A DNA stretch of 64,000 bases, from NCBI GenBank assembly GCA_964355135.1, contig CAYHCG010000008.1, positions 423-64,422 of the forward strand. The letters are read 5' to 3'. The DNA is from Candidatus Woesearchaeota archaeon. Lineage in GTDB: Archaea > Nanobdellota > Nanobdellia > Pacearchaeales > GW2011-AR1. The notes beneath the pieces are model-generated. The model saw only the letters and a program-made list of their open reading frames with translations. It was not told the origin of the DNA and did not search any database. The first letter of the stretch is position 1. Every line of letters begins with the position of its first letter. This document shows positions 7,622-63,092 of this stretch, piece after piece. Made by a program: the position numbers and the translations under genes.

Positions 7622-7760
7622 ATGAAAGAAAAATTTGTTAAGATAGTAAGAAAGAATGGAGATAGCCTCGCGATCAATATCCCGAAGGAAGTGATAGATA
7701 TAATGAAGATAACTGAAGGAGATATAATCAGAGTTGAAATCGAGAAGGTTAAAGGATAAT
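7622..7760 (+). CDS. AbrB/MazE/SpoVT-type swapped-hairpin DNA-binding protein (antitoxin-like), 45 aa
   Basis: Translates MKEKFVKIVRKNGDSLAINIPKEVIDIMKITEGDIIRVEIEKVKG. Not in the ORF track because it is under 60 aa. Its stop overlaps the next gene's ATG. Confidence 0.5.
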
Positions 7761-8590: not shown

Positions 8591-9184
8591 ATGAAAACTA
8601 AGCTTATGTTTGAACTAAAAAGAAAGGCAGTTCATATTCTCGCCTTGCTATTTTTAGCAATCTATATTATCGTCCGGAGATATTCTGGGAAAGGCATTGC
8701 TTTATTATCTTTAACCTTGATTTTGATATTATTTTTAATTCTGGACTACTTTAGGATTATCAGAAAGAAAAAGATACCTTTCTTTCATATTTTCTGGAGA
8801 GAGAGTGAGAGAAGCAGATTAGGCGGCAATGTTTACTTTATAATGGGGACTGTAGTTTCTTTTGCGATTTTTGATTTTTGGATCGCTTTAACTGCCCTTT
8901 TGATGACTGTTTTTGGGGATACTGCTGCCGCGTTGTTTGGAATAAAATTTGGGAAGATATTTCTCAAAAGCAATAAAAACAAAACGTGGGAAGGCGCGAC
9001 CGCAGAGCTTGTAGTTAACTTACTTATCGGTTTATTACTGCTCCATAACTTAGCGGTCGCAATTGGCATGGCCTTGGCAGCAACTTTGGTTGAAACCTTC
9101 TTCACAAAGGTAGATGATAACTTTGCCGTGCCCATTATATCTGGATTTATTGGAGAACTTTTAAATTTGGTAATCAGATTATGA
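8591..9184 (+). CDS. CTP-dependent polyprenyl kinase / CDP-archaeol synthase-like membrane protein (CdsA/SEC59/CarS family)
   Basis: Multi-TM protein with a KTWEGATAE motif typical of the CdsA/dolichol kinase family. Confidence 0.45.
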   Translation: MKTKLMFELKRKAVHILALLFLAIYIIVRRYSGKGIALLSLTLILILFLILDYFRIIRKKKIPFFHIFWRESERSRLGGNVYFIMGTVVSFAIFDFWIALTALLMTVFGDTAAALFGIKFGKIFLKSNKNKTWEGATAELVVNLLIGLLLLHNLAVAIGMALAATLVETFFTKVDDNFAVPIISGFIGELLNLVIRL

Positions 9185-9258
9185 TAACTATGAAAAAATA
9201 CCTCCTGACGAGAAATAAAACTAACAAAGTTTAAATAAATGGAAATTGTCTTTTAATT

Positions 9259-10788: not shown

Positions 10789-10806
10789 AAGTTATTTAAA
10801 TGTATT

Positions 10807-10992
10807 TTGTTTGAGAAAGTAATGAAAAAAGAGGAGATTTCAGTTCTAGCCCAGCTTTTGACTGCTATGAGAGAATGCGTTGATAAACTAGAGCACGCTG
10901 CTAAGAAAAAAGACTCTGAAGAAACTACTGTTGCCAAAAATGAACTTCTTAATCTGCAGAGAAGAATGAAAGAGATGTTAAAAAATGATTGA
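10807..10992 (+). CDS. small hypothetical helical protein
   Basis: ORF between the ATPase and platform genes. Confidence 0.25.
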   Translation: MFEKVMKKEEISVLAQLLTAMRECVDKLEHAAKKKDSEETTVAKNELLNLQRRMKEMLKND

Positions 10993-12319: not shown

Positions 12320-12322
12320 AAA

Positions 12323-13198
12323 ATGAAACTAAAAAAAATGCATTGGCTCGGAATAATCTCCGGAATTGTAATCGTCATTTTAGATTTGATCTTCTTTCTT
12401 GATAATACCAGGATGCTTTATTTTTTAATGGGTATCGCTTTTGGAATAATTGCCCTCCCATTTGTTATTGGCATGACTTTAGAAAATAAAAAAGAGCAAA
12501 AAATCAACGAAATGTTTTTGGAATTTTCCAGAAACTTGGCAGAAAGCGTGGCTACTGGAACTCCTATAAATAAAAGTATTGCAAATATGAAAAAAAAGAA
12601 CTATGGAGAACTCAATCCTTACATAGAAAAGCTCTCAAATCAAATTGAGCTTGGAGTCCCTATAAACAAGTCCTTAGAGAATTTTGCGGAAGATATCAAT
12701 AGCCCTGTAGTAAAAAGAGCGACTGCTTTGATAAGAGAAGCGGAGAAGGCAGGCGGAGAGATAGAACAAATACTTGACTCTACTGCAAAATCTGTTTCTG
12801 AAATAGAAAAACTAAAGAAAGAGAGAAAATCTGCAATTTACAGTTTAGTTGTGCAGGGATATATCATTTTCTTCATATTTATCGCTATTGTGATAGTAGT
12901 TGAATTCCAGATTTTGCCTTTGACTGTAGGAACTGGAGGATTTACTCAGTTTACAGGAGATATTAATAGCATTGATGCTGCGGCTTCAGGGGCCCAGGAA
13001 GATATGATAAGCCCTGAAGAACTAACCAAACCGTTTATATTTCTCCTTTTGACACAAGGATTTTTTGTAGGATTAGTTATTGGAAAGCTTACAGAAGGGA
13101 GTATCAAGGCAGGATTAAAACATTCTTTTATCTTGATGATGGCCGCATTTATAGTCTCTAGTGGAGCAAAGTTATTACTAACTCCTGTTAAGCCTTAG
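12323..13198 (+). CDS. type II secretion system F-domain platform protein (TadB/ArlJ-like), second half
   Basis: A second T2SSF-like domain (FSRNLAESVATGTPINKSIANM...VKRATALIREAEKAGGEIEQIL) with TM segments. Confidence 0.65.
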   Translation: MKLKKMHWLGIISGIVIVILDLIFFLDNTRMLYFLMGIAFGIIALPFVIGMTLENKKEQKINEMFLEFSRNLAESVATGTPINKSIANMKKKNYGELNPYIEKLSNQIELGVPINKSLENFAEDINSPVVKRATALIREAEKAGGEIEQILDSTAKSVSEIEKLKKERKSAIYSLVVQGYIIFFIFIAIVIVVEFQILPLTVGTGGFTQFTGDINSIDAAASGAQEDMISPEELTKPFIFLLLTQGFFVGLVIGKLTEGSIKAGLKHSFILMMAAFIVSSGAKLLLTPVKP

Positions 13199-42562: not shown

Positions 42563-43006
42563 TTGGTTTATAAAATGATTAAGAAAGGCGACAAATTAAA
42601 AGTAGATTATGAAGGTCGATTTGAAGACGGAGAAGTTTTTGATTCTTCAAGTCATGGCGATCACTCGCATCCTTTAGAATTTACTGTTGGAGAAGGTCAC
42701 GTAATTAAGGGCTTTGACGACGCAGTTATTGGAATGAAAAAAGGAGAGGAGAAAGAATTTGAGATTGAAGCACAAGACGCATACGGCGAAGTAAAAGAAG
42801 AATTAAAGCAAAAAGTGCCTAGAGCAGAATTAGGCGATTTGCCGGAACTAAAAAAAGGAATGGTTTTGATGTTGCAAACGCCTGACGGGCATAAAATGCC
42901 TGTGAATGTTGCAGACGTCGATGCAACGACAGTAACTTTAGATTTAAATCATCCTTTAGCAGGGAAAAAACTTATTTTTAAGATAAAAATTGTTGATATT
43001 GAGTAA
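42563..43006 (+). CDS. FKBP-type peptidyl-prolyl cis-trans isomerase
   Basis: KGDKLKVDYEGRFEDGEVFDSS...FTVGEGHVIKGFDDAVIGMKKGE matches the FKBP core, with an inserted flap domain. Confidence 0.85.
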   Translation: MVYKMIKKGDKLKVDYEGRFEDGEVFDSSSHGDHSHPLEFTVGEGHVIKGFDDAVIGMKKGEEKEFEIEAQDAYGEVKEELKQKVPRAELGDLPELKKGMVLMLQTPDGHKMPVNVADVDATTVTLDLNHPLAGKKLIFKIKIVDIE

Positions 43007-43298
43007 AAGAAAGATTTAAATTTCTAATTTTTAACATTTATGTATGAAAATTTTTGAAAAAGAGGCCAAAGACATCTATATCGGGGAAATGATAGAAGGA
43101 GTGAATGAACATCTAAAGAAATACAAAAATAGGAAGATGAGCGTTGTTGATCTAGATGCTCTGTTTAGATAAAGATACAAAAATTTAAGGCATGATTTGA
43201 GCGAGCTGAAAAGAGTTCATATTGATGGCAGTTTTGTATTAATATTTAAGGTTGATTTGGCCCATAATTATTGAATTTTGAATTAACGATTTAATAAA

Positions 43299-43574
43299 TT
43301 AAGGAAAAAGGCCTCTAGAAGAATCTTCATTTTTTCTATAGTCTCTTGAATTTCCTGCTTCGTCCATTTCTGATCCTCTATCGTGCATCGGATTATATAT
43401 TGCGATTATCTCTAAATCATTTCTGCGCCTTTCTTCAACTTTTTCAAGAACATATGCTGTTGCACCTAACATTATTGCCCCGGCTACTAATCCGGGCAGT
43501 ACTTCAGGTAATAATTCAGCCACCATAAATCTTCTGTATCGTGTCCGTGCACTTATTCTTCTTTCATCTAGCAT
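43299..43574 (-). CDS. hypothetical protein (island ORF)
   Basis: ORF with composition atypical for this genome (Arg/Glu-rich, higher GC). Confidence 0.3.
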   Translation of the reverse strand: MLDERRISARTRYRRFMVAELLPEVLPGLVAGAIMLGATAYVLEKVEERRRNDLEIIAIYNPMHDRGSEMDEAGNSRDYRKNEDSSRGLFP

Positions 43575-43703
43575 GTTTAAACCAAGGATTGCCCTATTAT
43601 AAACTTTTCTTAGTATTAAACGAACTCTTGTGCTAGGCTCAAACTTGTTAGAGAAAGCTGAAAGGTTTAGCTTTGGGTAAAGGTTTAAATAAGAAGAAAA
43701 AAC

Positions 43704-44150
43704 TTGATTTTTATGGAAAATGTAAGTAAATATCGACAGTTAAGGGGAGAAGTTGCTGCATTGAGATTTATCAATGAACAAACAGGATATGATTTAGATA
43801 TTAGAAAAACTATAGAAAGAAAATATATATTTGAGAAAATTTTTGATAAAGAAGGATCAATTAACGAGGGAATAGGTATTGGATTAACAATCGCAACTAT
43901 GGGGTTGCCGATGTTGGCAGGTCTTGTTTCCGCGGCAGTCGCTCTAAAAGGATTTGTTTCGCCTAAAGTGTCCGGTTTAGGGGGGGCAGTCCTGGGTTTG
44001 ATTACGGGAGGTTTCCTACATCACTACACTTTAGGGAGATGGGAGAGATCTTATTCAATGGTTAAAAAAGCTAAGGCCTATAAGGGAGTATATGACTCTG
44101 AAGGCATTGAAGGATTGATAGCTAAAGATATGGGATTCGATAAATTCTAA
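43704..44150 (+). CDS. hypothetical glycine-zipper membrane protein
   Basis: GIGIGLTIATMGLPMLAGLVSAAVALKG. Confidence 0.3.
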   Translation: MIFMENVSKYRQLRGEVAALRFINEQTGYDLDIRKTIERKYIFEKIFDKEGSINEGIGIGLTIATMGLPMLAGLVSAAVALKGFVSPKVSGLGGAVLGLITGGFLHHYTLGRWERSYSMVKKAKAYKGVYDSEGIEGLIAKDMGFDKF

Positions 44151-44263
44151 ATTTGTAGAGCTTCTAATCAAGTTTTATTAAAAGAATTCAGATTCGTTCG
44201 TTTAATTCGATTTTTAGGCTCTAAAACTTCGGGTAATCAATCTTGTGCGAACTCTTGTTAAAT

Positions 44264-44749
44264 TTAACGTAAAAGATTCTTTCTTTTTGCAAATAATCTC
44301 GAACTTCTGTCCAAATAATAAGGCAAATCTAGTTTTTTTGCCTGTTCGAGTAAAGGAACCAGGTTTGACCCATAAAAGTTTATTTGTCGATCATCTTCAA
44401 ATAGAGTATTTGGACATGTTGGAATCGTGATTAAAACTCCTTTATTTCCATAAAACAATGTGCTTACTATATCGCGGCCCCAAGGACCCGTTTTACGAAG
44501 CGATCCATTTTTAAGTTTATTAATAGCAGATTCATATGCCTCCGTAGTAACATGCCCGTTGAAACCGTAAGGGACATCTGGTAAATCGTGTTCGGGACCT
44601 CTCCAAAATTCTATTTTCGAGCTAGACGGTTTTCTAGGATTAAACATCAATTGGATTACTGGCCTTTTCATAAAAACCCTACTTTTAATCCATATAAAAA
44701 CCTTTCCCTTTGTTGTTCCCGCAGGAGATAACATATACCGAGCGAACAA
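44264..44749 (-). CDS. hypothetical protein (island ORF, atypical composition)
   Basis: ORF with no recognisable motif. Confidence 0.3.
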   Translation of the reverse strand: MFARYMLSPAGTTKGKVFIWIKSRVFMKRPVIQLMFNPRKPSSSKIEFWRGPEHDLPDVPYGFNGHVTTEAYESAINKLKNGSLRKTGPWGRDIVSTLFYGNKGVLITIPTCPNTLFEDDRQINFYGSNLVPLLEQAKKLDLPYYLDRSSRLFAKRKNLLR

Positions 44750-44768
44750 CGTCGATCTAATAAACTTA

Positions 44769-45071
44769 TTAATTGTGCGAACTCTTGCGATTTTTACCTT
44801 GAGTTTTTTTAGATAATGGGGAAATATTTACTATCCGGTAAGCATCTTTACCAATAGATATAGATTCTACACTTATCCTATCGCCCGATGATATGTTTTG
44901 ATGATCAGTGCCTCGATAATCAATAGATGTTGAACTCCAAGGTACAGAAATAGACAAAATTCTCATTGGTGGACCATCATATACCTGTCCCCCTACAATA
45001 AAGGGATCTATATATGTCTGCCCTACCACCCTACCTTCGTCCGTTCTTCTTTGAGCCGCAGGATAATCCAT
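44769..45071 (-). CDS. hypothetical protein (island ORF)
   Basis: ORF only. Confidence 0.25.
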   Translation of the reverse strand: MDYPAAQRRTDEGRVVGQTYIDPFIVGGQVYDGPPMRILSISVPWSSTSIDYRGTDHQNISSGDRISVESISIGKDAYRIVNISPLSKKTQGKNRKSSHN

Positions 45072-45117
45072 GAAAATCCTACTTTTTCCCAGTATAAAAA
45101 CCTATCTTTTTGATACC

Positions 45118-45144
45118 GAGCGCGTTCGGCGCTTCGCGCCTCAC
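45118..45144. repeat. GC-rich hairpin repeat GCGTTCGGCGCTTCGCGCCTCAC (copy 1). Copy 2 is at 46586-46613.
   Basis: Two near-identical ~70-bp intergenic segments. The GGCGC-ttc-GCGCC stem-loop stands out in an AT-rich genome. Confidence 0.7.
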
Positions 45145-45230
45145 TCTTTAGTGCAGCTAATTTTTTTAATAGGGGCGGAAAAATGTTGTTTTGGAATTTT
45201 GATAGATTAAACGAACTCTTCTGTCCTCAA

Positions 45231-45644
45231 TTATGCGGCAAAGTGAGACATTTTTTCTCGCTGAAGAGCAAGAGATATAGCTCTTTCTCCGACGTAGCTT
45301 GTAGGTATGGGTCCAAATTGTTCAGAAATATGGCCCCTTAATCTTTCGATAGCATTTTTAGTCACCCCATAATCACTAATTTCCTCGGAAAAATAAAGAT
45401 TTATCAAATCGCTAGGTGTTCCGTATAATGTTCTTTCTATAATTTTATCTTTGCAACGCCTCGTCCAATGCCTGAATTTCTGATCTATTTTTAAAGCAAG
45501 ATCTCTTCTCTGTTCTTTTTCTCTCTTATCTAAGTGCGAATATGCTCCTGCTAAGATATCTAGCCCTTCAGTAGTTTCATCCTGGAATGGGAGAAACCTT
45601 GGATTTTCGTCAATATCTTGATCTATAGTTAATTGAAATGTCAT
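45231..45644 (-). CDS. hypothetical protein (island ORF)
   Basis: ORF only. Confidence 0.3.
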   Translation of the reverse strand: MTFQLTIDQDIDENPRFLPFQDETTEGLDILAGAYSHLDKREKEQRRDLALKIDQKFRHWTRRCKDKIIERTLYGTPSDLINLYFSEEISDYGVTKNAIERLRGHISEQFGPIPTSYVGERAISLALQREKMSHFAA

Positions 45645-45750
45645 AAAAAGTCCTGCTTGTGACCCTATAAAAAGCTTTGCTTTTTCTCGATTAAACGAGC
45701 TCTTGCCCCTAGATCAAATATTTAAGAGATGCTAAGAAGTTTGAGCATGA

Positions 45751-46002
45751 TTATTTCTTGTAAATTCTTTCTCTATGGCCGATTTCAATAACGTAGATAA
45801 CTAACTGCATATCTTTAATATCTAAAATAATCCTATAATCGTCGACTCTTGCCCTATAATAATTACTGTTATACAAGCGTTTTACAAATTTATGAGGCCT
45901 TATTTTTATTCTTTCTATAGCAGAACCAATCCTATTTCTGATTTCTTGAGGTAGTTGGATTAGTTGATTTTTTGCCTCATTTGTAAAAATAATCTCATAC
46001 AT
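45751..46002 (-). CDS. RelE/ParE-family toxin
   Basis: MYEIIFTNEAKNQLIQLPQEIRNRIGSAIERI...YRARVDDYRIILDIKDMQLVIYVIEIGHRERIY. Overlaps the upstream antitoxin by 8 nt. Confidence 0.6.
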   Translation of the reverse strand: MYEIIFTNEAKNQLIQLPQEIRNRIGSAIERIKIRPHKFVKRLYNSNYYRARVDDYRIILDIKDMQLVIYVIEIGHRERIYKK

Positions 46003-46219
46003 CGACGTTCAACTCCTTTTTAACGTCTTCCCATTTGTGAATTCTGCCTTTCTTTATGTCCTCTTCGGATTTTGCAATACTCTTTTTAGTTTCTTCACTC
46101 AATTCTTCTCTGTCCCCTATTAAATCCCAAATTAAGTCTTCATAGCTTTCTTTCTCAGAAAGTTTAAGATTTTTAAGCTTGCTTACTAATTCCTTGCTTA
46201 TTTGTATTGTCGTATCCAT
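45995..46219 (-). CDS. antitoxin partner of the RelE-like toxin
   Basis: 74-aa acidic protein immediately upstream, translationally coupled. Confidence 0.5.
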   Translation of the reverse strand: MDTTIQISKELVSKLKNLKLSEKESYEDLIWDLIGDREELSEETKKSIAKSEEDIKKGRIHKWEDVKKELNVDV

Positions 46220-46299
46220 AGCAATACTATAACTTGCTATGGTATTTAAATTTTTCTCTTGTTGAGCGTATTAAGAGAGGCTAAGAAGTTTGAGCATTG

Positions 46300-46542
46300 T
46301 TATTTCCACGATTTGGAAGCCTCTGCCAATATTTCCAAATCTTTTTTAGTCATAGAAATAACATGTTTATCATGAAGATGCCGTAAAATATGCATATCTG
46401 CCTGCGCGTTTCCAAAATCAACTCTCATCGTATTATTATCTAAAGAATATGAACCGACCGAGTATCTTTTGCCATCGGAAGCAAGATATATTCTGCCCTT
46501 GGGTCCATCTTCAGTAAAAATATGATCATATAAAGTTTCCAT
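46300..46542 (-). CDS. hypothetical protein (island ORF)
   Basis: ORF only. Confidence 0.25.
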   Translation of the reverse strand: METLYDHIFTEDGPKGRIYLASDGKRYSVGSYSLDNNTMRVDFGNAQADMHILRHLHDKHVISMTKKDLEILAEASKSWK

Positions 46543-46657
46543 AATTACGACAGAGAATAAGGGTTTTTAATATTTATTGTGATGTCAGCGGCGTTCGGCG
46601 CTTCGCGCCTCACACTCTAATGTGGCTATTTTATTTTAGATTTGGGACGGATTTTTA

Positions 46658-46906
46658 TTATTCTTTAACAAAGTCGTCTAAAGCCGTTTCTAGCCTTCGA
46701 TCTTTACTATCTCCTGGTGCAAAAACAGAAACAGAGAATCTTGCGTGGGGAGTGCCTACGCCGATATATCCAATTGCCCCACAATATATGCCATTATCAT
46801 ATATCCTTTCTCCATCAAATTCAAACTTTTTGCCAGATAAATATTTCTTAATCTTGTCAACATCTTCTAATTCTTCTACTGTGTACAAAACACTTTCTCT
46901 TATCAT
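46658..46906 (-). CDS. hypothetical protein (island ORF)
   Basis: ORF only. Confidence 0.25.
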   Translation of the reverse strand: MIRESVLYTVEELEDVDKIKKYLSGKKFEFDGERIYDNGIYCGAIGYIGVGTPHARFSVSVFAPGDSKDRRLETALDDFVKE

Positions 46907-47043
46907 CGAGTCATATTAATAATTTAGTATAAAAATCTTTCTTTTTTATGAATTAAACGTACTTTTCTCCTTTAGAGACCCGAAAACTTCGTACAAGTAC
47001 TATTAAGCGAAGTCTTGCTCTATGAAGAAATTGATGGATTTAT

Positions 47044-47400
47044 TTAAGGTTCTGCTCGTTTGATAACTTCTACTGCATCGGGGTTAGATATGAGATTACT
47101 AGAAGGATCGTTATTAAAATTTTGAAGAATATTTAAATTTAGCCTGACTCTATCTCCTTTATTAATTTTACTATCTACTGCTGCTGCATACTCGTGATGT
47201 ACTGAATAAGTGAATTCAGAAGTATCTGTTTTTACGGTGAATGCATAAGGATAATAGGATCCAGCATTATTAGTTTGCACTTCATTAATAATTATGCCTC
47301 GAATATAATTTGGAGGAAGAGGTTTTTCTTCTTCAAACAAATCACAACCTGCAGCACTAAGAGAAATTGCGCCAGCCATTAAATATTTTGATAGACTCAT
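47044..47400 (-). CDS. small secreted/lipoprotein-like protein
   Basis: MSLSKYLMAGAISLSAAGC is a lipobox-like ...AAGC motif. Confidence 0.3.
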   Translation of the reverse strand: MSLSKYLMAGAISLSAAGCDLFEEEKPLPPNYIRGIIINEVQTNNAGSYYPYAFTVKTDTSEFTYSVHHEYAAAVDSKINKGDRVRLNLNILQNFNNDPSSNLISNPDAVEVIKRAEP

Positions 47401-47497
47401 AAATTTGTCAGTTATTTGTCATATTTAAACTTTTTGATTGATTAAACGAAGTTTAAGGTCATGCTGAAAGATGTTGGAGAAAGCTGAAAGATTGAGC

Positions 47498-47725
47498 TTA
47501 ATTTTCTAATTGGATATTTTTTACTTTAACGCTTTGAAGGAAGTCTTTAGGGATTTGCTTGCTTACGTCAAGGATTTCGATGCCCAAGGTTTTTCCTTCC
47601 TTGTCTAAGTCTACGTTTATATTTTTATTTAGAGAGATTGTTTCACTTACTTCTCCGGCTTTTATTTCCTTAAAGTATATGTATGCAGCATCTGCTTCTT
47701 TATCTATTTCAATTTTCATTTCCAC
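47498..47725 (-). CDS. DUF2283-family antitoxin-like protein
   Basis: MKIEIDKEADAAYIYF......GKTLGIEILDVS matches the DUF2283 pattern. Confidence 0.5.
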   Translation of the reverse strand: MEMKIEIDKEADAAYIYFKEIKAGEVSETISLNKNINVDLDKEGKTLGIEILDVSKQIPKDFLQSVKVKNIQLEN

Positions 47726-47928
47726 ATAAGAGTTATTATCTTTATATAATTATCTTTTTCCTCGTAAATTACTTTGAGAGTTTTATTTGATATTTTCTTG
47801 TAAATCTCGACTTTCCCTTCTTTCCTAACAGAATACTCTGAAAAGTCAACCGCTTCTTGAACTTGTGAAAAGGAAATATTTCTCTCTTTCATCCTCTTTT
47901 TTGCATGATCTGAAAGAATAATTTTCAT
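47716..47928 (-). CDS. DUF4258-family toxin-like protein
   Basis: MKIILSDHAKKRMKERNISFSQVQEAV. Overlaps the DUF2283 gene by 10 nt. Confidence 0.5.
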   Translation of the reverse strand: MKIILSDHAKKRMKERNISFSQVQEAVDFSEYSVRKEGKVEIYKKISNKTLKVIYEEKDNYIKIITLMWK

Positions 47929-48025
47929 GACTTAATCAGTTGAGATCTACTAATAAATTTATCGTTATCGAAGATAAAACAGCTGTTTGGACAGGTGTTT
48001 GTGTTGTTTGAGATGTTTTAAACAA

Positions 48026-48274
48026 CTAACCTAATGGAGAAAGACCGATGTATCCACCTAGAAGGCCCAAGATACCTACTAAAATAAGATAGATGCCTAC
48101 AAAGTAATTTAGAAATCTAGGCCAGACTAAGATAAGAATTCCGAAAATGATGGCTAGAACGGCTGTAATTGTAAATGTAAGTGCCATGATATATTGAAAG
48201 CTCGCAAGTATATAAATGTTACTTGTTTTGCTCAGACTGCTTATTGGCCCAAGCGGTAATAATAAGAATTGCAA
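48026..48274 (-). CDS. DUF3096-like small membrane protein
   Basis: ITAVLAIIFGILILVWPRFLNYFVGIYLILVGILGL. Confidence 0.4.
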   Translation of the reverse strand: MQFLLLPLGPISSLSKTSNIYILASFQYIMALTFTITAVLAIIFGILILVWPRFLNYFVGIYLILVGILGLLGGYIGLSPLG

Positions 48275-48518
48275 CTGCGCCGATTAATGTAACTATTAAG
48301 GCTGTGTAGAGATCTGCCAGATAGGGATGATAGAGTAGAATGCCTTTTTTGGGAACACCATCAACTATTTTTTTGATGACAGTTTGCCAGGAGAGAGCAA
48401 TGACTAAGCCAAATGCTGCAATTAATGCAGTCGTAGTTTGCTTCTTAAATTCGAGCTTTATTATTGATGCCCTATTAAGTAACTTGGTTTTCTGATTTGG
48501 AGGAGTCACTTTTTCCAT
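48219..48518 (-). CDS. small membrane protein
   Basis: Two TM segments. Confidence 0.3.
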   Translation of the reverse strand: MEKVTPPNQKTKLLNRASIIKLEFKKQTTTALIAAFGLVIALSWQTVIKKIVDGVPKKGILLYHPYLADLYTALIVTLIGAVAILIITAWANKQSEQNK

Positions 48519-48584
48519 GTTTACTTGAATATAACTTTAGATGTTTATGATAATTAAAAAAATAAAAATAAATAACTTTTGTGA

Positions 48585-48815
48585 TTATTTCTTGAATAAT
48601 CTAATTATTTCCCATATACCGGCTAGACCTACTAAGGCATAGATTATGGTGGTTACAACACCTAGATTTCCTACTACGTTTATACCCCAAATCATTAGAC
48701 CCCAATTTAGCGCGCCGATTATAACAAGAATTCTTGCTATCCAGTCGATTGCGTTCATTTGACTTATTTCACAACCTCCTTTCAACCTCTTTAGTAGAAT
48801 ACCTAAAATATGCAA
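48585..48815 (-). CDS. DUF378-like small membrane protein
   Basis: IDWIARILVIIGALNWGLMIWGINVV...IYALVGLAGIW. Confidence 0.45.
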   Translation of the reverse strand: MHILGILLKRLKGGCEISQMNAIDWIARILVIIGALNWGLMIWGINVVGNLGVVTTIIYALVGLAGIWEIIRLFKK

Positions 48816-48855
48816 ATAGAGTTTAAATATGTTTCCATTTTAGAATAGGACTAGC

Positions 48856-49218
48856 CTAGTGTTTTTTATCCATATAATAAACACCAAGGCTAAACACTCC
48901 TATGACGAGATGCACGATGGTTGTTTTAGTGTTTATATTGAGCATGTTTAATAAGAGAGTATTAATCTCAGGAATGAAACCTAATACTGCCAGAAGGAAA
49001 AAGATCCATCCTATAACCTGATTATATCTTATTCCCTCTCCCTTTGTGCCAATATAGATTCCCATCACTCCGCAGAGTATATAGAAAATGCTGAGATAGA
49101 GACTGGTGCTAAACAATCCCGAATTGCCTATGAGAGGATTATTAAAAAAATATGCGGCTCCTGCTAAAAGTAAAAAAATGCCTAAAACTAATGAAAGAGT
49201 CTTTTGTTTGTTTGCCAT
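48856..49218 (-). CDS. small membrane protein (DUF4383-like)
   Basis: Four TM segments. Confidence 0.3.
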   Translation of the reverse strand: MANKQKTLSLVLGIFLLLAGAAYFFNNPLIGNSGLFSTSLYLSIFYILCGVMGIYIGTKGEGIRYNQVIGWIFFLLAVLGFIPEINTLLLNMLNINTKTTIVHLVIGVFSLGVYYMDKKH

Positions 49219-50458: not shown

Positions 50459-50608
50459 AAATTTATGAAAATGGGGGAAAAAGGAGAGAGTTTTAAGCGA
50501 ACTTTAGCCGTAAAGAATTGATGAAAGGTTTAGGGAGAAGTTAGTGAAAGATACCCGTTTAAACGAATTACTCAAAGTTTAAGGGCATTTTGTGAGAGAT
50601 TTACGATT

Positions 50609-55995: not shown

Positions 55996-56050
55996 GTTGT
56001 GTATTATTAAGAGTTATTTTTAAATGTTGTTGTAGTGTTGTTTAGGAAAA

Positions 56051-56311
56051 TTACATTAAGTCTTCTTCAGAGACAACTACAAAATCGCCAATAGCTATTA
56101 TTGAATTGTAAGGAACTAGAGCTTCCCCTTTATTTGAGGATTCTAAGGAGAGGTTTTTTGTATATGGAGTTGAATCTTTAAGAACTAACTGGATTAATTC
56201 TCCTGTTCTTGTTTCAAAAGTAATGTCTTTGACGAAACCTAATCTCTTGCCTTCCTTGGTAACCACGAGCTTTCCCATGACATCTCTTAGAGGCTTTTTT
56301 TCTAGTACCAT
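56051..56311 (-). CDS. PRC-barrel domain protein
   Basis: RDVMGKLVVTKEGKRLGFVKDITFETRTGELIQLVL. Confidence 0.5.
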   Translation of the reverse strand: MVLEKKPLRDVMGKLVVTKEGKRLGFVKDITFETRTGELIQLVLKDSTPYTKNLSLESSNKGEALVPYNSIIAIGDFVVVSEEDLM

Positions 56312-56379
56312 CAGTTCTGTAAATATGTATGATATTTAAACTTTTCTTTGGTGGAGTTGTGTATTGAGGAGGAAAAGAA

Positions 56380-56916
56380 CTTTAAATTGAAGAATTATTC
56401 AACTTTCTTCTTACCCCCGCCCCCCATGGTTTCGTGTGGAGATAGGATATTATTATAGTGAGACTGAGATATTTTTCTTCTTCTAATTTTCATTTATAAA
56501 TATTTATATTATATAATATAGATATAATAACTATTTTGTTGATATTGATAGATTAGTTCTTTTAATATGAGATATAGATAGTTGTAACGATATAATTGAT
56601 TGTTATGATTAATTCATATTAATAGACCATATTATTGATTAAGAGAAGTATTTTAACAGAGTAGTACGGTTAATTAAATTAAAGTGAATGATTTGATAGT
56701 TATACTTTCATATAATAGTTCTGTCTAATTATAATTTATTTTTATGTAGTAGATATCTATTTCTCCAGTGGAAATGCTGGTGTGGGTGCGTGATTTGATT
56801 TTTTCTTTTTATGATCATTTTTCGTCGATCTTTCCCCATTAACACAAGAAATAAGGGTTAAAGAATAGATAAGTTTAAATTGGAGGGATAGTAAATATAT
56901 TTGAGGTGAAAAAGAG
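56380..56916. promoter_or_regulatory. chromosomal replication origin (oriC): two inverted ORB elements flanking an AT-rich DNA-unwinding element
   Basis: ORB TCTCCAGTGGAAATGCTGGTGTGGGTG at 56762..56790. Inverted degenerate ORB ACCCCCGCCCCCCATGGTTTCGTGTGGAGA at 56413..56446. About 300 bp of more than 85% A+T between them. Directly upstream of orc1/cdc6-polD. Confidence 0.6.
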
Positions 56917-58128
56917 ATGGATAAACTTGATCAGATTTTCGATTCTTTTGCAGCAACCAGCTTATTCAAGAATAAAAGTGTGCTGCAGTCAAATTATGCC
57001 CCCGATAGTATTTTACACAGAACTGAACAAATAGAGTCAATCGCTTCTATTTTGGGTCCAACTCTGCGGGGAGACAAGGCCAGTAATCTATTTCTTTATG
57101 GGAAAACCGGCAGCGGCAAGACCTTAAGCATGCAACATGTAGGAAATAAATTAGAAAGCAGAACAAAAGAGCTCAATGGCAATAAAATCAAGTTTTTATA
57201 TATAAATTGTAAATTAAGGAAAGTTTCTGATACAGAATATAGAATCATCGCAGAATTAATAAAAGCCCTGGGGGAAAAAATACCTGCTACAGGACTTCCT
57301 ACCGATGCAGTTTATTCAAAATTTGTTGAAATTATAGATAATGAAAAACAAGTTGTTGTCCTAGTACTAGACGAAATAGATCAGGCCGTTAAGAAAATAT
57401 CTGATAATTTTATTTACACATTAACAAGGATGAATTCAGAACTAAAAAATGCTCAAATAAGTCTAGTTGGGATAAGTAATAGTTTGACATTCATGGATAA
57501 CTTGGATCCTCGAGTCAGAAGCTCTCTAGGAGAAGAGGAAATTGTTTTTCCACCTTATAATGCATTGCAATTAAGAGATATATTAAAGAAAAGGGCAGAA
57601 TCCGCATTCAATGAGGACTGTCTGGGAGAGGGAGTTATTGAAAAATGTGCGGCTTATGCTGCAAGAGAGCATGGGGATGCAAGAAGAGCTTTAGATTTAC
57701 TAAGGGTTGCGGGGGAGATAGCGGTTAGAGAAGGAAGCAAGAAAGTGTTACTTAAGCATATTGATGTTTCAAATGAGAAAATCGAAAGAGATAAAATGCT
57801 CGATGTTATTGAAAGCGAACCTGCACAGTTCCAACTTGTTTTATACGCAATAATGAATTTAAGTGATGAAGGCAAGGGCATTAAAAATATATTTACTGGA
57901 GATGTTTTCAATGTTTATCAGGAACTTTGCGAGAAAACCAAGAGCGAAGTTTTAACCCAGCGGAGAGTCTCGGATATTATCGCAGAGTTTGACATGTTAG
58001 GAATAATAAATGCAAGGGTGATAAGCAAGGGGAGACAGGGAAGGACCAGAGAAATAAAATTGATGCTATCTAAAAACATAAAAGAGAAAGCAAAAGAGAT
58101 CTTAGAGAAAGCTTTAGATATAAAATGA
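56917..58128 (+). CDS. orc1: Orc1/Cdc6 replication initiator
   Basis: Walker A LFLYGKTGSGKT, Walker B VLVLDEID, C-terminal winged helix. Confidence 0.9.
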   Translation: MDKLDQIFDSFAATSLFKNKSVLQSNYAPDSILHRTEQIESIASILGPTLRGDKASNLFLYGKTGSGKTLSMQHVGNKLESRTKELNGNKIKFLYINCKLRKVSDTEYRIIAELIKALGEKIPATGLPTDAVYSKFVEIIDNEKQVVVLVLDEIDQAVKKISDNFIYTLTRMNSELKNAQISLVGISNSLTFMDNLDPRVRSSLGEEEIVFPPYNALQLRDILKKRAESAFNEDCLGEGVIEKCAAYAAREHGDARRALDLLRVAGEIAVREGSKKVLLKHIDVSNEKIERDKMLDVIESEPAQFQLVLYAIMNLSDEGKGIKNIFTGDVFNVYQELCEKTKSEVLTQRRVSDIIAEFDMLGIINARVISKGRQGRTREIKLMLSKNIKEKAKEILEKALDIK

Positions 58129-58131
58129 AAA

Positions 58132-59676
58132 ATGGACAACGAAATTTTGAATCTGATAAGAGAAAGAGGATTATTACTAGAGAAGGAAATATTCGATTTA
58201 GTTAATCAGATTAAGGATGTAACTATCGCTAAGAACTTCTTAGAACAAATTGAGAGATTATCTGGAAAAAAACTCATAACTCGGAACGTTCTTGGAAGCA
58301 ACATGGAATATGTGAAAAGCTTTATGGGTACTTTAGGAGACAATAGCTATGTTGAGAGAGTTTTTGTGAATCTTGGTATAAGTCTTGAAGTAAGAAGAGA
58401 AGTACTCAAGGAAGAAAACAGAAAGCAGGAATATAAGATCCTGTATGCGAATACGACGGTTGACAAAAAGATTGAAGTAAAAGACTTTGTGGGTCATTTT
58501 AGGTCGCGCTTTGCGCAATTACAAAGAATTCTTATGTCACGGCCGGAACTTCAAAATAATTTGATTTCTATAAACAAAATACAATCCGAAAGAGCTAATT
58601 TAAGCATTATAGGAATTGTGAAAGAAAAAAGAATAACAAAAAATAAAAACATGATCTTGAGGCTTGAGGATTTAACTGGAGAGATAGGGGCCTTAGTTAA
58701 ATTTGATAGGGGAGAAGTATTTGAGAAAGCTGACGAATTATTATTAGACGATGTAATAGGGGTCAAGGCATCTGGAAATAAAGATCTCTTGTTTGTGCAG
58801 GATATATTTTATCCTGATTCAATGATATTTGAGAAAACTAGGTTTGAAAATGAAGATTGCATAGCCTTTCTTTCTGATTTACATTGTGGCAGCGATAGAC
58901 ACTTAAAAAAGAGCCTAGCGAGATTTTTGGAGTGGATTAATTCAGATGACGAAACTGCAAAGAAAATAAAATATATCTTTTTTGTAGGAGATAATGTAGA
59001 TGGGGTGGGAATTTTTCCAGGGCAGGAAGAAGTTTTAGAAATGAAAAGCATGAAACAACAGTATCAACTATTAAGCCATTATTTAAGACAAATTCCCAAG
59101 CATATTACCATGTTTATGTGTCCGGGACAGCACGATGCGGTAAGAGTTGCTGAACCTCAACCTGTTATAAGTAGAAGATATGCTCCTGAATTATACGAAA
59201 TTGAAAATTTAAATTTAGTGAGTAACCCTAGTCTTGTGAAGTTAATAGAAGGAGACAAAGAGTTTAAGGTACTAATGTATCATGGAGCAAGCATTCACAG
59301 TTTTATTAATGAAATTAAGACGTTAAGACTTATGAAAGCACACAGATGTCCTGCAAAAGCGGTTGAACAAATGCTCAAAAGAAGACATTTGGCTCCAACA
59401 CATAGCGAAGTGGTCTATATTCCAAATGCAGAGATCGATCCTTTAGTTATTAACGAAGTTCCAGATATTTTATGCACTGGTGAAGTTCACAGATTGGACA
59501 TTTCTACTTACAACGGCATCTTAATTATGACTGGCAGTTGCTGGCAGGCACAAACTCCTTTTGAAGAGAAGGTTGGGAATATTCCCGATCCTGCAAAAGT
59601 ACCTGTTTTTAATATGAAAACAAGGGAGCTAAAGATTTTTGATTTTAGCGCCACGGAGGAACTGAAAAAAAGATGA
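58132..59676 (+). CDS. DNA polymerase II (PolD) small subunit DP1
   Basis: Calcineurin-like phosphoesterase (Mre11-like) core with an OB domain. Gene order orc1-DP1-DP2 as in Pyrococcus. Confidence 0.85.
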   Translation: MDNEILNLIRERGLLLEKEIFDLVNQIKDVTIAKNFLEQIERLSGKKLITRNVLGSNMEYVKSFMGTLGDNSYVERVFVNLGISLEVRREVLKEENRKQEYKILYANTTVDKKIEVKDFVGHFRSRFAQLQRILMSRPELQNNLISINKIQSERANLSIIGIVKEKRITKNKNMILRLEDLTGEIGALVKFDRGEVFEKADELLLDDVIGVKASGNKDLLFVQDIFYPDSMIFEKTRFENEDCIAFLSDLHCGSDRHLKKSLARFLEWINSDDETAKKIKYIFFVGDNVDGVGIFPGQEEVLEMKSMKQQYQLLSHYLRQIPKHITMFMCPGQHDAVRVAEPQPVISRRYAPELYEIENLNLVSNPSLVKLIEGDKEFKVLMYHGASIHSFINEIKTLRLMKAHRCPAKAVEQMLKRRHLAPTHSEVVYIPNAEIDPLVINEVPDILCTGEVHRLDISTYNGILIMTGSCWQAQTPFEEKVGNIPDPAKVPVFNMKTRELKIFDFSATEELKKR

Positions 59677-62600
59677 ACATACAAGCTTATTTCAATGAAA
59701 TTGATGAAAAAGTAAAGCATGCTTACGCTATTGCAAATAAAGCGAGAGCTTTGGGACTCGATCCTGCAGATACCGTAGAAACCCCTATTGCAACAACCCT
59801 AGCTGAAAAGACTATAGGATTAATCTCTGTCGTTTATCCACAATTAAATAACAAAGAAGTTATAGAGAGAATTTTAGAGCTGGAAAAAGAATACGGACAA
59901 CTTGATACTACAGTTGCATTTAAGATTGCAGAGGAAGTCGCAAAAGAGAAATTCTGCAAATTTAAGGACTTAATGGAATCTATGGATGCGGGAATAAGGG
60001 TAGGTTTTGCCTATATTACTTTGGGTGTTGTTTCAAGTCCTATTGAAGGATTTACGGGACTTAGGGTGGGGAAGACTAGAGAAGGTAAAGATTACTTGAT
60101 GGCTTATTTTTCAGGCCCCATAAGAAGCGCTGGAACTACTGCTTCGTGTGTAGTGTTAATGCTGATTGATTATTTACGAGAGACTTTTGGATTTGCAAAA
60201 TTTGATCCAGACGAGAATGAAGTTAAAAGATATGTTACTGAAAATTATGATTATCATGAAAGAGTAAACAATTTGCAATATTTACCCACTGAAGAAGAAA
60301 TTGCATTCCTAGCAAAGAATTTGCCTATCCAGATTAATGGAGAGGCGAGTGAAGATCGAGAAGTTTCCAATTATAAAGATCTGGCAAGGGTAGAAACTAA
60401 TTTTATTCGCGGAGGGATGTGCCTTATTTTTTCAGAAGGATTAGCTCAAAAGGCGCAGAAAGGACTTAGACTTTTGAAGGGAGTAAAAGAGAAAGGATTA
60501 AAATCTAGCGGATGGGACTTTCTGGATGAGTATATTGTATTGCACAAGAAGAGAGAAAAAGGAAGCGCGGATACAAGTCCCACATACATAAAAGATATTG
60601 TTGCAGGCAGACCTGTTTTTGGACATCCTTCAAGATCGGGAGGATTCAGGTTTAGATATGGGAGAAGCAGAACGGGCGGATTTTCTGCAACTGCTATAAG
60701 CCCTTTAACTATGGGCATATCGAATCAATTCTTATCTTCTGGAAATCAATTAAAAATAGAAAAACCTACGAAGGGATGCGCAATAACAGTATGTGATTCT
60801 ATAGATGGCCCGGTTGTAAAACTAAAAGACGGAACGGTAAAGAGAATGAAAACTTTTGAAGAGACAAAAAAGCTTTACAAAGATGTTGAAGAGATTTTAT
60901 ATTTGGGAGACTTGCTGTTTTCATTAGACGATGTAATTAATAGGAATTATGAGTTACTAAAATCAGGATATGTTGAAGAGTGGTGGGACTTGGAATTAAA
61001 GAAAGCGGCAGGAGAAGATAATCCGGACACAAAACTAGATAGTTTTAATGTGGTTTTTGAAAAGGCAGTAGAACTTAGTGAAAAATATAAAATACCTCTG
61101 CATCCTTCTTTTATTTATTATTGGACGCAAATAGATTATGATGGATTTTTGGCATTAATTGATTGGACCGCACATGGAGATCTCAGAGAAGGCAAGCTTG
61201 TCCTGCCTTATACTAAAGTTGATAGAGAACGATTTGCGAAAGGCAAGAGGACTATGGAATTAATTGCATGTGAGCATTTAGTTGGGATAGAGAATGTCAT
61301 TTTAGAAGAAAAAGATACAAAACCTTTTTTACTTAATCTAGGATTTGATGTTGAAAATCTAACTATGGAGAGTTTTGAGGCAAAATTAGATGAGCTTTCT
61401 TTAGTAGTGAAGGAGAAAGGAAACGTATTAGAAATTATAAATAAACTTTCCAAGTATAAAATTAAAGATAAGGCAGGAACATTCATTGGAACGAGGATGG
61501 GTCGACCAGAAAAAGCGAAACTGAGGAAGCTTACTGGCAGTCCGCATGTTTTATTTCCTGTAGGAAATGAAGGAGGAAGATTAAGGAGTTTTCAGGCAGC
61601 CTGCGATATAGGAAATGTGACTAGCGAATTTGCTAATTACTATTGTAATACTTGCAAGGGCGATAAGATTTATAGAAAATGTGAAACTTGCAGAGCAGAT
61701 TGCGAACTCAAAGAAGAAGAGCAAGGGTTTGGCAAAAGAGGGAAAAGAATAGATATTAAAGAGTATTTTGAAAGCGCAAAAAAACTCTTGGGAGTGAGGG
61801 GAGAAGAACTGCCTGTTGTGAAGGGAGTTAGGGGAATGTCAAATAAAGATCACAGCATAGAGCCCTTGGCGAAAGGGATATTGCGGGCAAAGCATAACTT
61901 GAATGTAAACAAGGACGGGACTATCAGATACGATATGACTGAAATGGCTTTCACTCATTTTAAGCCTGGAGAAATTGGAACGAGCCCAGAGAAATTAAGG
62001 GGGCTTGGATACGAAAAAGATATTGAAGGAAATCTACTCGAGCGTGATGACCAAATCTTAGAATTATTACCTCATGATATTATCTTGCCGTCATGTCCTG
62101 AGACTCTAGATGAAAGAGCAGATGACGTTTTTTTAAGAATATGTAAATTTATTGATGACGAACTAGAGAAATTGTATAAATTAGATAAGTTTTACAATGC
62201 CAATACGAAAGAAGATATCATAGGCCACTATGTTGTTTGTATTGCACCTCATATTTGCACTGCAACTGTGGGGAGAATCATAGGGTTTTCAAAGATACAG
62301 GCTTTACTAGCAAGTCCGTTCATGCATGCAGCGATGAGAAGAGACTGTGATGGTGATGAAGCTGCAGTAATGTTGCTTATGGACTTACTGCTCAACTTCT
62401 CGAAGAAATTTTTGCCAGCTCATAGGGGGGGAACTCAAGATGCGCCTCTAGTATTGAATACACATATTAGCGCGGGAGAAGTTGATGACCAAATCCTTGA
62501 CTTTATCATGGGAGCATACCCTTTAGAACTTTATGAACTAGCAGAGCAAGGCAAACATTCTTCCGAATTAAAAGTAGACAACGTAAAAAAGAGGTTGAAA

Positions 62601-63092
62601 GATGGAAAGGACACATTTACCGGGATAAAATTTACTCACGGTTGCTCTGATTTCAATGCGGGAGTTGTGAATTCTTCCTATAAGCTTTTGCCTACAATGC
62701 ATGAAAAAGTAAGCGCGCAGATGGATTTATGTAAAAAAATACGGGCAGTGGATGTCGAAGATGTTGCTCGATTGATCATTGAGAGACACTTCATAAGAGA
62801 TACTAGGGGTAATTTGAGAAAGTTTTCAATGCAGGTTTTTAGATGTGTGGGCTGTAATGAGAAATATAGGAGGCCTCCTTTGATTGGCAAGTGCGGCAAG
62901 TGCGGAGGGAGATTGATATTTACGATTTCAGAAGGAAGTATTCTCAAATATATGCAGCCGGCACTAGATTTAGCGAGAACTTACAATTCTAGCCCATATC
63001 TATTGGAATCACTAGAACTTACTGAAATGTATATTCATAGTATATTTGGCAAAGAGAAAGAGAAACAAGAAGGACTTGGGAAGTGGTTTTAA
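59673..63092 (+). CDS. DNA polymerase II (PolD) large subunit DP2
   Basis: 1139 aa. C-terminal Zn-binding CVGCNEKYRRPPLIGKCGKCGG. No intein. Overlaps DP1 (ATGA). Confidence 0.9.
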   Translation: MNIQAYFNEIDEKVKHAYAIANKARALGLDPADTVETPIATTLAEKTIGLISVVYPQLNNKEVIERILELEKEYGQLDTTVAFKIAEEVAKEKFCKFKDLMESMDAGIRVGFAYITLGVVSSPIEGFTGLRVGKTREGKDYLMAYFSGPIRSAGTTASCVVLMLIDYLRETFGFAKFDPDENEVKRYVTENYDYHERVNNLQYLPTEEEIAFLAKNLPIQINGEASEDREVSNYKDLARVETNFIRGGMCLIFSEGLAQKAQKGLRLLKGVKEKGLKSSGWDFLDEYIVLHKKREKGSADTSPTYIKDIVAGRPVFGHPSRSGGFRFRYGRSRTGGFSATAISPLTMGISNQFLSSGNQLKIEKPTKGCAITVCDSIDGPVVKLKDGTVKRMKTFEETKKLYKDVEEILYLGDLLFSLDDVINRNYELLKSGYVEEWWDLELKKAAGEDNPDTKLDSFNVVFEKAVELSEKYKIPLHPSFIYYWTQIDYDGFLALIDWTAHGDLREGKLVLPYTKVDRERFAKGKRTMELIACEHLVGIENVILEEKDTKPFLLNLGFDVENLTMESFEAKLDELSLVVKEKGNVLEIINKLSKYKIKDKAGTFIGTRMGRPEKAKLRKLTGSPHVLFPVGNEGGRLRSFQAACDIGNVTSEFANYYCNTCKGDKIYRKCETCRADCELKEEEQGFGKRGKRIDIKEYFESAKKLLGVRGEELPVVKGVRGMSNKDHSIEPLAKGILRAKHNLNVNKDGTIRYDMTEMAFTHFKPGEIGTSPEKLRGLGYEKDIEGNLLERDDQILELLPHDIILPSCPETLDERADDVFLRICKFIDDELEKLYKLDKFYNANTKEDIIGHYVVCIAPHICTATVGRIIGFSKIQALLASPFMHAAMRRDCDGDEAAVMLLMDLLLNFSKKFLPAHRGGTQDAPLVLNTHISAGEVDDQILDFIMGAYPLELYELAEQGKHSSELKVDNVKKRLKDGKDTFTGIKFTHGCSDFNAGVVNSSYKLLPTMHEKVSAQMDLCKKIRAVDVEDVARLIIERHFIRDTRGNLRKFSMQVFRCVGCNEKYRRPPLIGKCGKCGGRLIFTISEGSILKYMQPALDLARTYNSSPYLLESLELTEMYIHSIFGKEKEKQEGLGKWF

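Follow-up and report, generated by a model that had tools for sequence, protein, structure and literature searches.

The 64,000-nucleotide stretch of DNA analysed here, referred to as the window, was taken from a groundwater Candidatus Woesearchaeota archaeon, a member of the DPANN archaea (GenBank assembly GCA_964355135.1, contig CAYHCG010000008.1, positions 423 to 64,422). At positions 43037-47930 on the minus strand it contains a cassette array with 12 open reading frames (ORFs) and one pseudogene, grouped in about 10 units of one or two genes and located between an FKBP gene (42575-43006, plus strand) and a DUF3096 gene (48026-48274, minus strand). An initial annotation made from the letters alone had described the locus as a cassette-like, co-oriented array, and this description is supported by the layout of the ORFs and by comparison with four related array-bearing genomes, which we refer to as genomes A, B, C and D. 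Eleven of the 12 small ORFs between 43.3 and 47.9 kb are indeed encoded by the minus strand, the exception being G11 (43713-44150, plus strand). Almost all gaps between the ORFs were said to carry one and the same element. All 10 internal boundaries do carry an element, but of different kinds, namely a junction element that we call J, a truncated J, or an element that we call D. An unusual composition was ascribed to several of the ORFs; only G1 and G7 (0.286) and G2 (0.315), all of which are toxin-antitoxin genes, have a GC content below the core range of 0.326-0.408. The GC content of the window is about 35% and the island shows no compositional break.

J is about 59 nt long, starts at the stop codon of the upstream gene or 0-3 nt after it, and ends in AAGAG-TTCG-TTTAAT. 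When the junctions are read on the coding strand and related genomes are compared, the box and the 'stem-loop' of the initial annotation turn out to be two parts of this single element. Nine long copies of J, three from each of three genomes, can be aligned without gaps over 63 columns with a mean identity of 76%. The box is enriched, with 15 matches to TTAAACGARCTCTTG at no more than three mismatches against 6.07 ± 2.3 in shuffled sequences (none of 100 shuffles reached 15), and the five matches with at most two mismatches are all located at 43.6-47.0 kb in a single orientation. Taken alone, the stem-loop motif shows no enrichment (8 matches, with 4.8 expected; 14 of 100 shuffles reached 8). 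The idea of a structured repeat could not be upheld either: no pairing is conserved, RNAalifold predicts 0 consensus pairs in J, and the single-strand DNA folds of J range from -0.5 to -9.7 kcal/mol with shapes that differ between copies. With no consensus pair and with weak and variable folds, J is therefore conserved in sequence and not in structure. A miniature inverted-repeat transposable element was ruled out, since J has no terminal inverted repeats in the nine-copy alignment and its copies are confined to one locus per genome. In the window, Rfam at gathering thresholds recognises 3 tRNAs and nothing else, and a permissive Rfam scan of 42.9-48.1 kb gave a single match at chance level.

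To locate J, a sequence-only model built from the nine long copies (R1) was run over 92 kb from three genomes, on both strands and with filters off. It returned the nine training copies and nine further matches with expectation values (E) below 0.1, and all 18 are on the array strand. Within the window, the minus strand has three full copies and four partial matches with E<0.1, and the plus strand has none; the eight equal copies counted previously are thus three full copies and several truncated ones. Unbiased 9-mer scans of both strands agree with R1, and the J family is polar and confined to the array. An occurrence of the element throughout the genome, as expected for an ordinary promoter, had been named as the result that would speak against a cassette system. 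J is missing from the other ~59 kb of the window, except for one weak copy at 50.5 kb.

The copies of J and of its box differ in completeness, and those described here are on the minus strand unless stated otherwise. Full copies follow the DUF4258/DUF2283 pair (47438-47499; R1 score 56.8 bits, E 2e-16) and the ParE/DUF7557 pair (45688-45748; core AAGAGCTCGTTTAAT; 55.6 bits), and a third lies between the reversed G11 and G12 (43614-43673; 63.2 bits) and is 87.5% identical to positions 10777-10863 of genome A. The first of these starts on the stop codon of G2, which it overlaps at 47499, and ends with TTCGTTTAAT; the second forms the left border of the G8 insertion discussed below. The stem-loop had been thought to overlap the stop codons at 45751 and 46300, but it is found 2 nt after them. 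Only the left half of J follows G5 (46271-46297; R1 positions 1-27, E 0.004); the TTCGTTTAAT part is missing, and CAAGAG and then the TATA box of the ParE operon come next. Conversely, G3 is followed by the right part of J (47001-47031; core CAAGAC-TTCG-CTTAAT; E<0.1), the right flank of which is common to site 6783 of genome A while the left flank is not. A degenerate second box upstream of the G4 promoter (AAAAGTACGTTTAAT, 46950-46970; R1 E 1.1, not significant alone) and this truncated copy enclose a gene-less segment of 50 nt. A core-only J (GAAGAG-TTCG-TTTAAT, 45204-45224; E<0.1), which is located 10 nt after the stop codon of G8, delimits the G8 insertion on the right and is followed by a C spacer and a D element. 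Short boxes overlap the last codons of G9 (CAAGAG-TTCG-CACAAT, 44770-44787) and lie 6 nt after the stop codon of G10, between convergent genes (CAAGAG-TTCG-CACAAG, 44240-44257); the latter is conserved in genome A together with its 88-nt right flank. A box-like sequence in the opposite orientation (GATTCGTTCGTTTAAT, 44191-44207, plus strand) is found 40 nt after the stop codon of the reversed G11 and is conserved in genome A at about 10463-10479, there on the minus strand. Lastly, the isolated weak J-like copy (50491-50544; R1 E 0.003) is located about 2.6 kb upstream of the array and is conserved in genome A at 2672-2693. It coincides with a small cluster of weak box-like sequences (TTCGYTTAAA) on the array strand, at 50491-50579 in the window (minus strand) and at 2607-2693 and ~2971 in genome A (plus strand), which lies downstream of a conserved gene for a 264-residue coiled-coil/helix-turn-helix protein and is conserved between the two genomes.

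The spacing and orientation of these copies bear on what J marks. The box precedes the ATG of the next gene by about 40-55 nt in four cases and one copy lies between convergent gene ends, both as initially annotated. It was also rightly concluded that a simple promoter does not explain every copy, in view of the box between convergent ends and of the copy at 45204-45224, which is 100 nt away from a TATA box. In genome A, the J copies at 10805-10865, 11306-11328 and 12319-12356 keep the array orientation among minus-strand genes that include a Pfam-supported nucleotidyltransferase. This maintenance of orientation beside reversed genes argues that J marks the boundaries of cassettes rather than the 3' ends of genes.

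D, the second junction element, is GC-rich within an AT-rich genome and often begins right at a stop codon. The window has two copies, both on the minus strand, one upstream of the G9 promoter (45122-45167; CACTAAAGAGTG-AGGCGCGAAGCGCC-GAACGCGCTCGG) and the other between G4 and G5 (46591-46636). Further copies are located at ~7204-7260, 8400-8457 and 9147-9195 in genome A, at 6514-6570 in genome C and at ~1765-1810 in genome D. The 19-nt core GAGGCGCGAAGCGCCGAAC occurs without any mismatch in the two window copies, in one of the three copies of genome A, and in genomes C and D, although the core genes of the last two are only ~70% identical to those of the window genome; the remaining two copies of genome A differ in the hairpin loop only. 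D could form a plausible GC hairpin, without compensatory changes, and neither long-range pairing between J and D nor covariation within D was found. The element contains GCGAAGC, which we take to be a very stable DNA mini-hairpin motif.

Among the cargo genes, the two toxin-antitoxin pairs that had been proposed are confirmed in that all four domains score above the Pfam cut-offs. A ParE toxin and a DUF7557 antitoxin form one cassette (45751-46002 and 45995-46219, minus strand; PF05016 at 40 bits, E 6e-10, and PF24434 at 32.2 bits), and DUF4258 and DUF2283 proteins are encoded by the first cassette of the array (47716-47928 and 47498-47725, minus strand; PF14076 at 41.3 bits and PF10049 at 54.2 bits). 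The genes overlap by 8-10 nt within each pair, and both pairs are predicted to be type II toxin-antitoxin systems, consisting of adjacent or overlapping small genes with domains of toxin and antitoxin families. The remaining eight ORFs of the array received no assignment from Pfam, NCBIfam or PADLOC; they include the 137-residue ORF of the G8 cassette (45212-45695, minus strand), which has its own predicted promoter. At the distal end of the array, a reversed gene (43044-43274, plus strand) resembles RelE/ParE by eye and is probably a pseudogene because its codon 43 is an in-frame TAA. The 3' part of this gene (43171-43279) can be aligned with positions 12397-12507 of genome A (84% nucleotide identity), so that it probably represents a decaying cassette common to the two arrays. 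Homologous ParE/DUF7557 pairs are present in the arrays of genomes C (82% amino-acid identity) and D (73%). More distant Pacearchaeota have the same ParE toxin-antitoxin pair as a solitary insertion without J, and J is therefore a part of the array rather than of the toxin-antitoxin module. In the window, the ParE operon has a promoter with an inverted repeat across the start codon (CCATAGCAA...TTGCTATG, window 46220-46250) that is conserved in the window genome and in genomes C (7740-7783) and D (2895-2940). This repeat is probably the operator of the antitoxin.

In 8 of the 10 cassette starts, a TATA box is located exactly 21 nt before the ATG, and in one the distance is 23 nt. The same TATA-N21-ATG layout is seen in ~11 of 27 core genes, the promoters of which do not have the box, and on this ground the cassette promoters appear to be ordinary leaderless promoters of the host. 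TATA boxes exactly 21 nt before the ATG occur throughout the window (e.g. at 1936, 6028, 9259, 13188, 41736 and 50609), which implies that transcripts in this organism may be mostly leaderless. The box and J themselves are not ordinary archaeal promoter elements of the B recognition element (BRE)/TATA type. One promoter module, GGTTTTTATA-N21-ATG of G10 (44669-44712, minus strand), has been reused: related modules precede G9 (45069-45112) and G8 (45642-45685), and three more copies with 81-94% identity stand before unrelated ORFs in genome A. Likewise, the window genome and genome A share a conserved first-cassette promoter up to the ATG, although the genes differ.

The comparison of related genomes revealed the same locus with different genes. 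In the window genome and in genomes A, B, C and D, the arrays adjoin a DUF378/DUF5654/DUF3096 cluster. G10 belongs to a single homologue cluster, which led to a 47-kb contig of another Woesearchaeota metagenome-assembled genome (MAG) from Hainich, genome A. The array on this contig is ~7.5 kb long and encodes MazEF-like and VapBC/PIN proteins, a nucleotidyltransferase pair and products without a known function. The array that genome B has at this locus is shorter. Genomes C (from JGI, NCBI and ENA samples) and D (another Hainich MAG) were reached via the ParE protein, and their J and D elements are on the array strand. The 36 cassette proteins of the window genome and genomes A and B include only one related pair (G10), and the gene content of the five loci is almost non-overlapping. 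The initial annotation would have given up the cassette idea if the ORF content did not vary between relatives at the element boundaries; it does vary there. The junctions are conserved above the level of the core genes: between genomes, nucleotide identity is 66-79% for core genes and 77-97% for J and D junction modules (69-79% and 80-97%, respectively, for the window genome and genome A). The G10 cassette segment (44163-44732, minus strand) also occurs in genome A, where it is 95% identical in nucleotides and 96% in amino acids, and this one cassette was thus recently shared by the two genomes. When one genome per species was scanned for exact 18-mers, only two Woesearchaeota MAGs (A and B) and 4 bacterial singletons matched, and the same scan of metagenome contigs returned only Hainich contigs of the populations of the window genome, A and B. 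A viral origin was rejected on the basis of pattern scans of IMG/VR, which gave 48 singletons for the box (chance level) and 0 matches for the D element. A literature search on such arrays in Woesearchaeota or DPANN archaea found nothing relevant.

The array sequence is identical in at least five independent metagenome assemblies from the Hainich aquifer, and the arrays of the window genome and genome A were each recovered at 99.9-100% in replicate assemblies. Assembly error is therefore unlikely, as the repeats are at most 60 nt long and diverged, and both arrays were reproduced in replicates. Two contigs of low coverage depart from the window. Contig L010 (Hain_H52_02um_R2_53891, coverage 2) is 99.85% identical to the window on the FKBP side and departs from it at 43036/43037, the distal edge of the array, continuing with 123 nt without a match in the sequences compared; it may be a strain-level variant of the array, or a chimera. 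In the 1.3-kb contig L005 (coverage 3), bases 1-33 depart from the window at 46452, inside G5, which may be an assembly artefact.

Several observations bear on where cassettes may be exchanged. The information content of 23 anchored sites peaks at positions -6 to +8 around TTCG and has fallen to background at +9. Wherever left flanks share at least 20 nt of homology, this homology stops 5-7 nt after TTCG (9 of 9 pairs). When the 16-nt core is excluded, the best partners of the left and right flanks differ at nearly all of 28 sites, and only the orthologous G10 site shares both flanks; the left and right flanks of the core are thus decoupled. In addition, a filled and an empty site can be compared: positions 8300-8440 of genome A, a contiguous J-core-spacer-D arrangement, correspond to window positions 45760-45690 joined directly to 45228-45130. 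The G8 unit of ~484 nt, which is missing from the genome A site, lies in the window between direct repeats of the core AAGAG(Y)TCGTTTAAT.

We therefore consider an attC-less, one-directional cassette array that recombines at the ~16-nt core, with the enzyme encoded elsewhere, and give this interpretation an even chance of being right. Each unit would consist of a leaderless promoter of the host type, one ORF or toxin-antitoxin pair, and a downstream junction element (J or D). All junction elements share one direction, whatever the orientation of the accompanying gene. Units would be gained, lost and exchanged by recombination inside the core, with ...AAGAGTTCG at the end of a cassette and TTTAAT... 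at its start, and the toxin-antitoxin cassettes might stabilise the array. The crossover would then lie in the core, and the reaction would be conservative and site-specific, involving a particular recombinase encoded elsewhere in the genome and a circular intermediate. A more far-reaching version, which we advance tentatively and hold to be somewhat doubtful, is a previously undescribed site-specific capture system in DPANN archaea. Here, single-gene cassettes with leaderless promoters would be exchanged at a one-directional AAGAG-TTCG-TTTAAT site with a ~45-nt J arm on one side and a GC-rich D hairpin, by a recombinase encoded elsewhere whose site requirements would be unlike those of integron integrases.

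A number of observations weigh against core recombination. The shared G10 segment continues for 88 nt past the box on the right, where its boundary is not at the core, and promoter modules are conserved up to the ATG of unrelated ORFs, which also places an exchange boundary off the core. There is a single clean filled/empty site; a second candidate around G12 is untidy and was not used as evidence. Having no dyad symmetry and, in J, no conserved hairpin, the core matches no known type of recombinase site. Arrays appear stable within species-level populations (that of genome C is identical across the contigs of different samples, and that of the window genome across at least five assemblies), and all data are metagenome assemblies from one narrow clade. 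A tyrosine or serine recombinase, the search for which had been proposed as a check, is absent from the 64-kb window, no Phage_integrase domain being present in the scanned window ORFs of at least 150 residues. The sole recombinase near any of the arrays, that of genome D, is of the housekeeping XerA type. This tyrosine recombinase gene (4310-5131, minus strand) is located ~1 kb, or two genes, from the distal array end, beside a ribosomal protein operon, and has no counterpart in the 64-kb window; the protein scores 260 bits with the XerA model NF040815 and 214.6 with the integron-integrase model, under the cut-off of 265.

Some of these points are what would be expected if the locus were an island shaped by homologous recombination, in which conserved regulatory modules (promoter, J and D) anchor the swapping of ORFs without a dedicated recombinase or crossover site. 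The modules would be promoters, operators, or 3'-end and insulator elements, whose conservation in co-occurring relatives would let them provide the homology. We regard this main rival as rather unlikely, but it deserves serious attention. It would account for the conserved modules directly next to the start and stop codons of ORFs that are unrelated, for the near-identical promoter modules (81-94%) before three unrelated ORFs of genome A, and for the first-cassette promoter that is the same in the window genome and genome A up to the ATG of different genes. The right boundary of the shared G10 segment off the core, the 64-kb window without a recombinase and the stability of arrays within populations are equally in its favour. 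However, homologous recombination leaves unexplained why homology ends so sharply 5-7 nt after TTCG in all nine pairs, how the G8 insertion came to be bounded by a mere 16-nt direct repeat, why the junctions have a single orientation even beside reversed genes, and by what route 35 unrelated genes came to lie between the modules in the first place. The locus might also be a mere cluster of small genes with a purely regulatory repeat, the box being a transcription factor site (upstream activating or operator) that co-regulates the island and the upstream part of J a signal for 3' ends or termination. This is consistent with the start of J at stop codons, with boxes placed 10-17 nt upstream of the next BRE/TATA in four window copies and several copies of genomes A and B, and with a reversed box in genome A (~11312-11327, TTCG at 11318) that stands 16 nt upstream of the TATA box of a reversed gene. 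Nevertheless, a regulatory role seems improbable, as copies also occur between convergent gene ends (44240-44257) or 100 nt from the next TATA box (45204-45224), truncated left-only and right-only copies exist, and the orientation of J is strict and independent of the gene strand. Moreover, J has neither the T-run of an archaeal terminator nor a conserved hairpin, and the turnover of gene content at the boundaries would be left without an explanation.

Two known kinds of mobile DNA were considered as well. Integrons and clusters of attC sites lacking integron integrases (CALINs) are known from nine phyla of archaea, Nanoarchaeota/Woesearchaeales among them (Ghaly et al. 2022, PMC9668308), and the statement in the initial annotation that no integron-like system is described in archaea is thus outdated. 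The archaeal examples are mostly CALINs, and their cassette families include DUF2283, ParE and Polbeta nucleotidyltransferase (Ghaly et al. 2022, PMC9668308), all of which are also present in our arrays. A canonical CALIN, i.e. an array without a nearby integrase, would further fit the short co-oriented ORFs, many of unknown function, the abundant toxin-antitoxin cassettes and the ~59-nt repeat that begins at the stop codon and whose end ...TCGTTTAAT loosely resembles the attC end ...TCGTTAGGC. Against this, a covariance model built from nine archaeal attC sites of Ghaly et al. 2022 (PMC9668308), named R2, detected the attC of aadA1 from plasmid R100 as a positive control (46.2 bits, E 1e-10) but nothing significant in the loci of the window genome and genomes A, B, C and D. 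The best E was 0.36, outside the arrays, and the sole match that overlaps a junction element scored 8.8 bits (E 3.6). An attC has the form RYYYAAC ... GTTRRRY, with complementary R and L boxes that form an extended imperfect hairpin. Real attC sites fold as end-to-end hairpins of -8 to -30 kcal/mol, which J does not, its folds being weak and inconsistent and without consensus pairing; its R boxes are not complementary. Furthermore, the cassettes appear to have their own promoters, and no IntI was found in the 64-kb window, the recombinase of genome D being XerA. On the evidence of the covariance model with its positive control and of the folds, the reading of the shared element as an integron attC was rejected, and a canonical CALIN is the least probable of all readings considered. 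Tandem remnants of non-autonomous HUH elements of the IS200/IS605 or IS91 type, inserting one-way 3' of TTCG or GTTC and regenerating the target at their own end, are highly improbable too. They would match the one-directional insertion beside an invariant tetranucleotide, the core repeat at both ends of the G8 unit and the GCGAAGC of the D element, and the array target (TTCG/GTTC) presumably resembles the target sites of IS91. On the other hand, no HUH transposase was found among the window ORFs, there are no conserved subterminal hairpins at both ends, and the copies are at one locus instead of being dispersed.

The surroundings of the array were also inspected. The neighbouring genes for small membrane proteins (DUF4383, DUF378, DUF5654 and DUF3096; 48026-49218 in the window, 4292-5050 in genome A, 2566-3584 in genome B and 421-1700 in genome D) are not the same in number or order in the five genomes. 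Among them, genome B has a box (TTCG at ~2787; R1 match 2776-2798) and an extra cassette for a protein of 114 residues (3713-4187). These membrane-protein genes may be an older part of the array. The window is archaeal, and its other genes encode Orc1/Cdc6, the PolD small subunit, FttA, TrmB regulators, Rad50/Mre11 and proteasome subunits. At 56000-63092, orc1/cdc6 stands between the most AT-rich kilobase of the window (GC 0.29), which comes before it, and the genes for the small and large PolD subunits, which come after it. This is a likely origin of replication, ~9 kb away from the array; clear repeats of the origin-recognition-box type were not found. Elsewhere, an ORF with a LAGLIDADG_3 domain (7759-8556, plus strand) overlaps at its 3' end the gene for tRNA-Phe (8438-8508, minus strand).

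To our knowledge, cassette arrays are so far known essentially as integrons, which are defined by a folded attC and by IntI. The present array has the architecture, cargo and turnover between relatives of an integron, yet its junction repeat fails every attC test. If core recombination is correct, cassette capture would have evolved more than once, or integron-like platforms would run on another type of site, and ultra-small symbiotic archaea with very reduced genomes would possess a dedicated means to sample genes from co-occurring relatives. The joints of modules with unrelated ORFs, which are precise to the start or stop codon, would then offer a handle on how cassettes arise; since the ORFs that the conserved modules adjoin, right at the start and stop codons, are unrelated, the locus might also reveal the first steps in building a cassette. 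If homologous recombination alone is at work, the locus would still be a clear and well-delimited hypervariable island in DPANN genomes.

Small modules, often toxin-antitoxin modules, that lie between short sites and are moved by a recombinase encoded elsewhere are known from the pdif modules of Acinetobacter. The array resembles these in the size and frequent toxin-antitoxin content of its modules and, in genome D, in a XerA gene ~1 kb away. It differs in that the core does not have the dyad-symmetric 11-6-11 layout of dif and in that its sites are all direct and not alternating; inspection of the aligned cores and flanks by eye revealed no dif-type site (~28 bp, with inverted arms of ~11 bp and a 6-bp spacer). 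At tandem integration hotspots, for instance tRNA-linked islands and tycheposon arrays, the attachment site is restored with every integration. Common to these and our array are the fixed locus, the direct repeats of a short core at the junctions and the cargo that varies between close relatives, but the units here are single genes of 0.3-0.7 kb without an integrase of their own, and the core is not in a tRNA gene. The closest likeness is to integrons and CALINs. The array consists of tandem short genes that are mostly co-oriented, mostly of unknown function and rich in toxin-antitoxin pairs; a ~60-nt repeat begins at the stop codon at the downstream end of the cassettes and keeps its orientation beside reversed genes; the repeats are more alike within the lineage than the genes are, and gene content varies between relatives at the repeat boundaries. 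Like a CALIN, it has no adjacent integrase, and an adjacent IntI, a tyrosine recombinase with an extra domain specific to integrons, is required of complete integrons only. Unlike an attC, J has neither R''/R' complementarity nor a hairpin, is conserved in sequence and is missed by the attC model. Integron cassettes are mostly promoterless and transcribed from a common promoter (Pc), whereas here each cassette has its own predicted promoter, promoter modules have been reused, and a second, unrelated element (D) is present. The locus was not filed as an integron because the defining test for attC failed. Without using integron attC sites, the array is nonetheless integron-like in its architecture and turnover.

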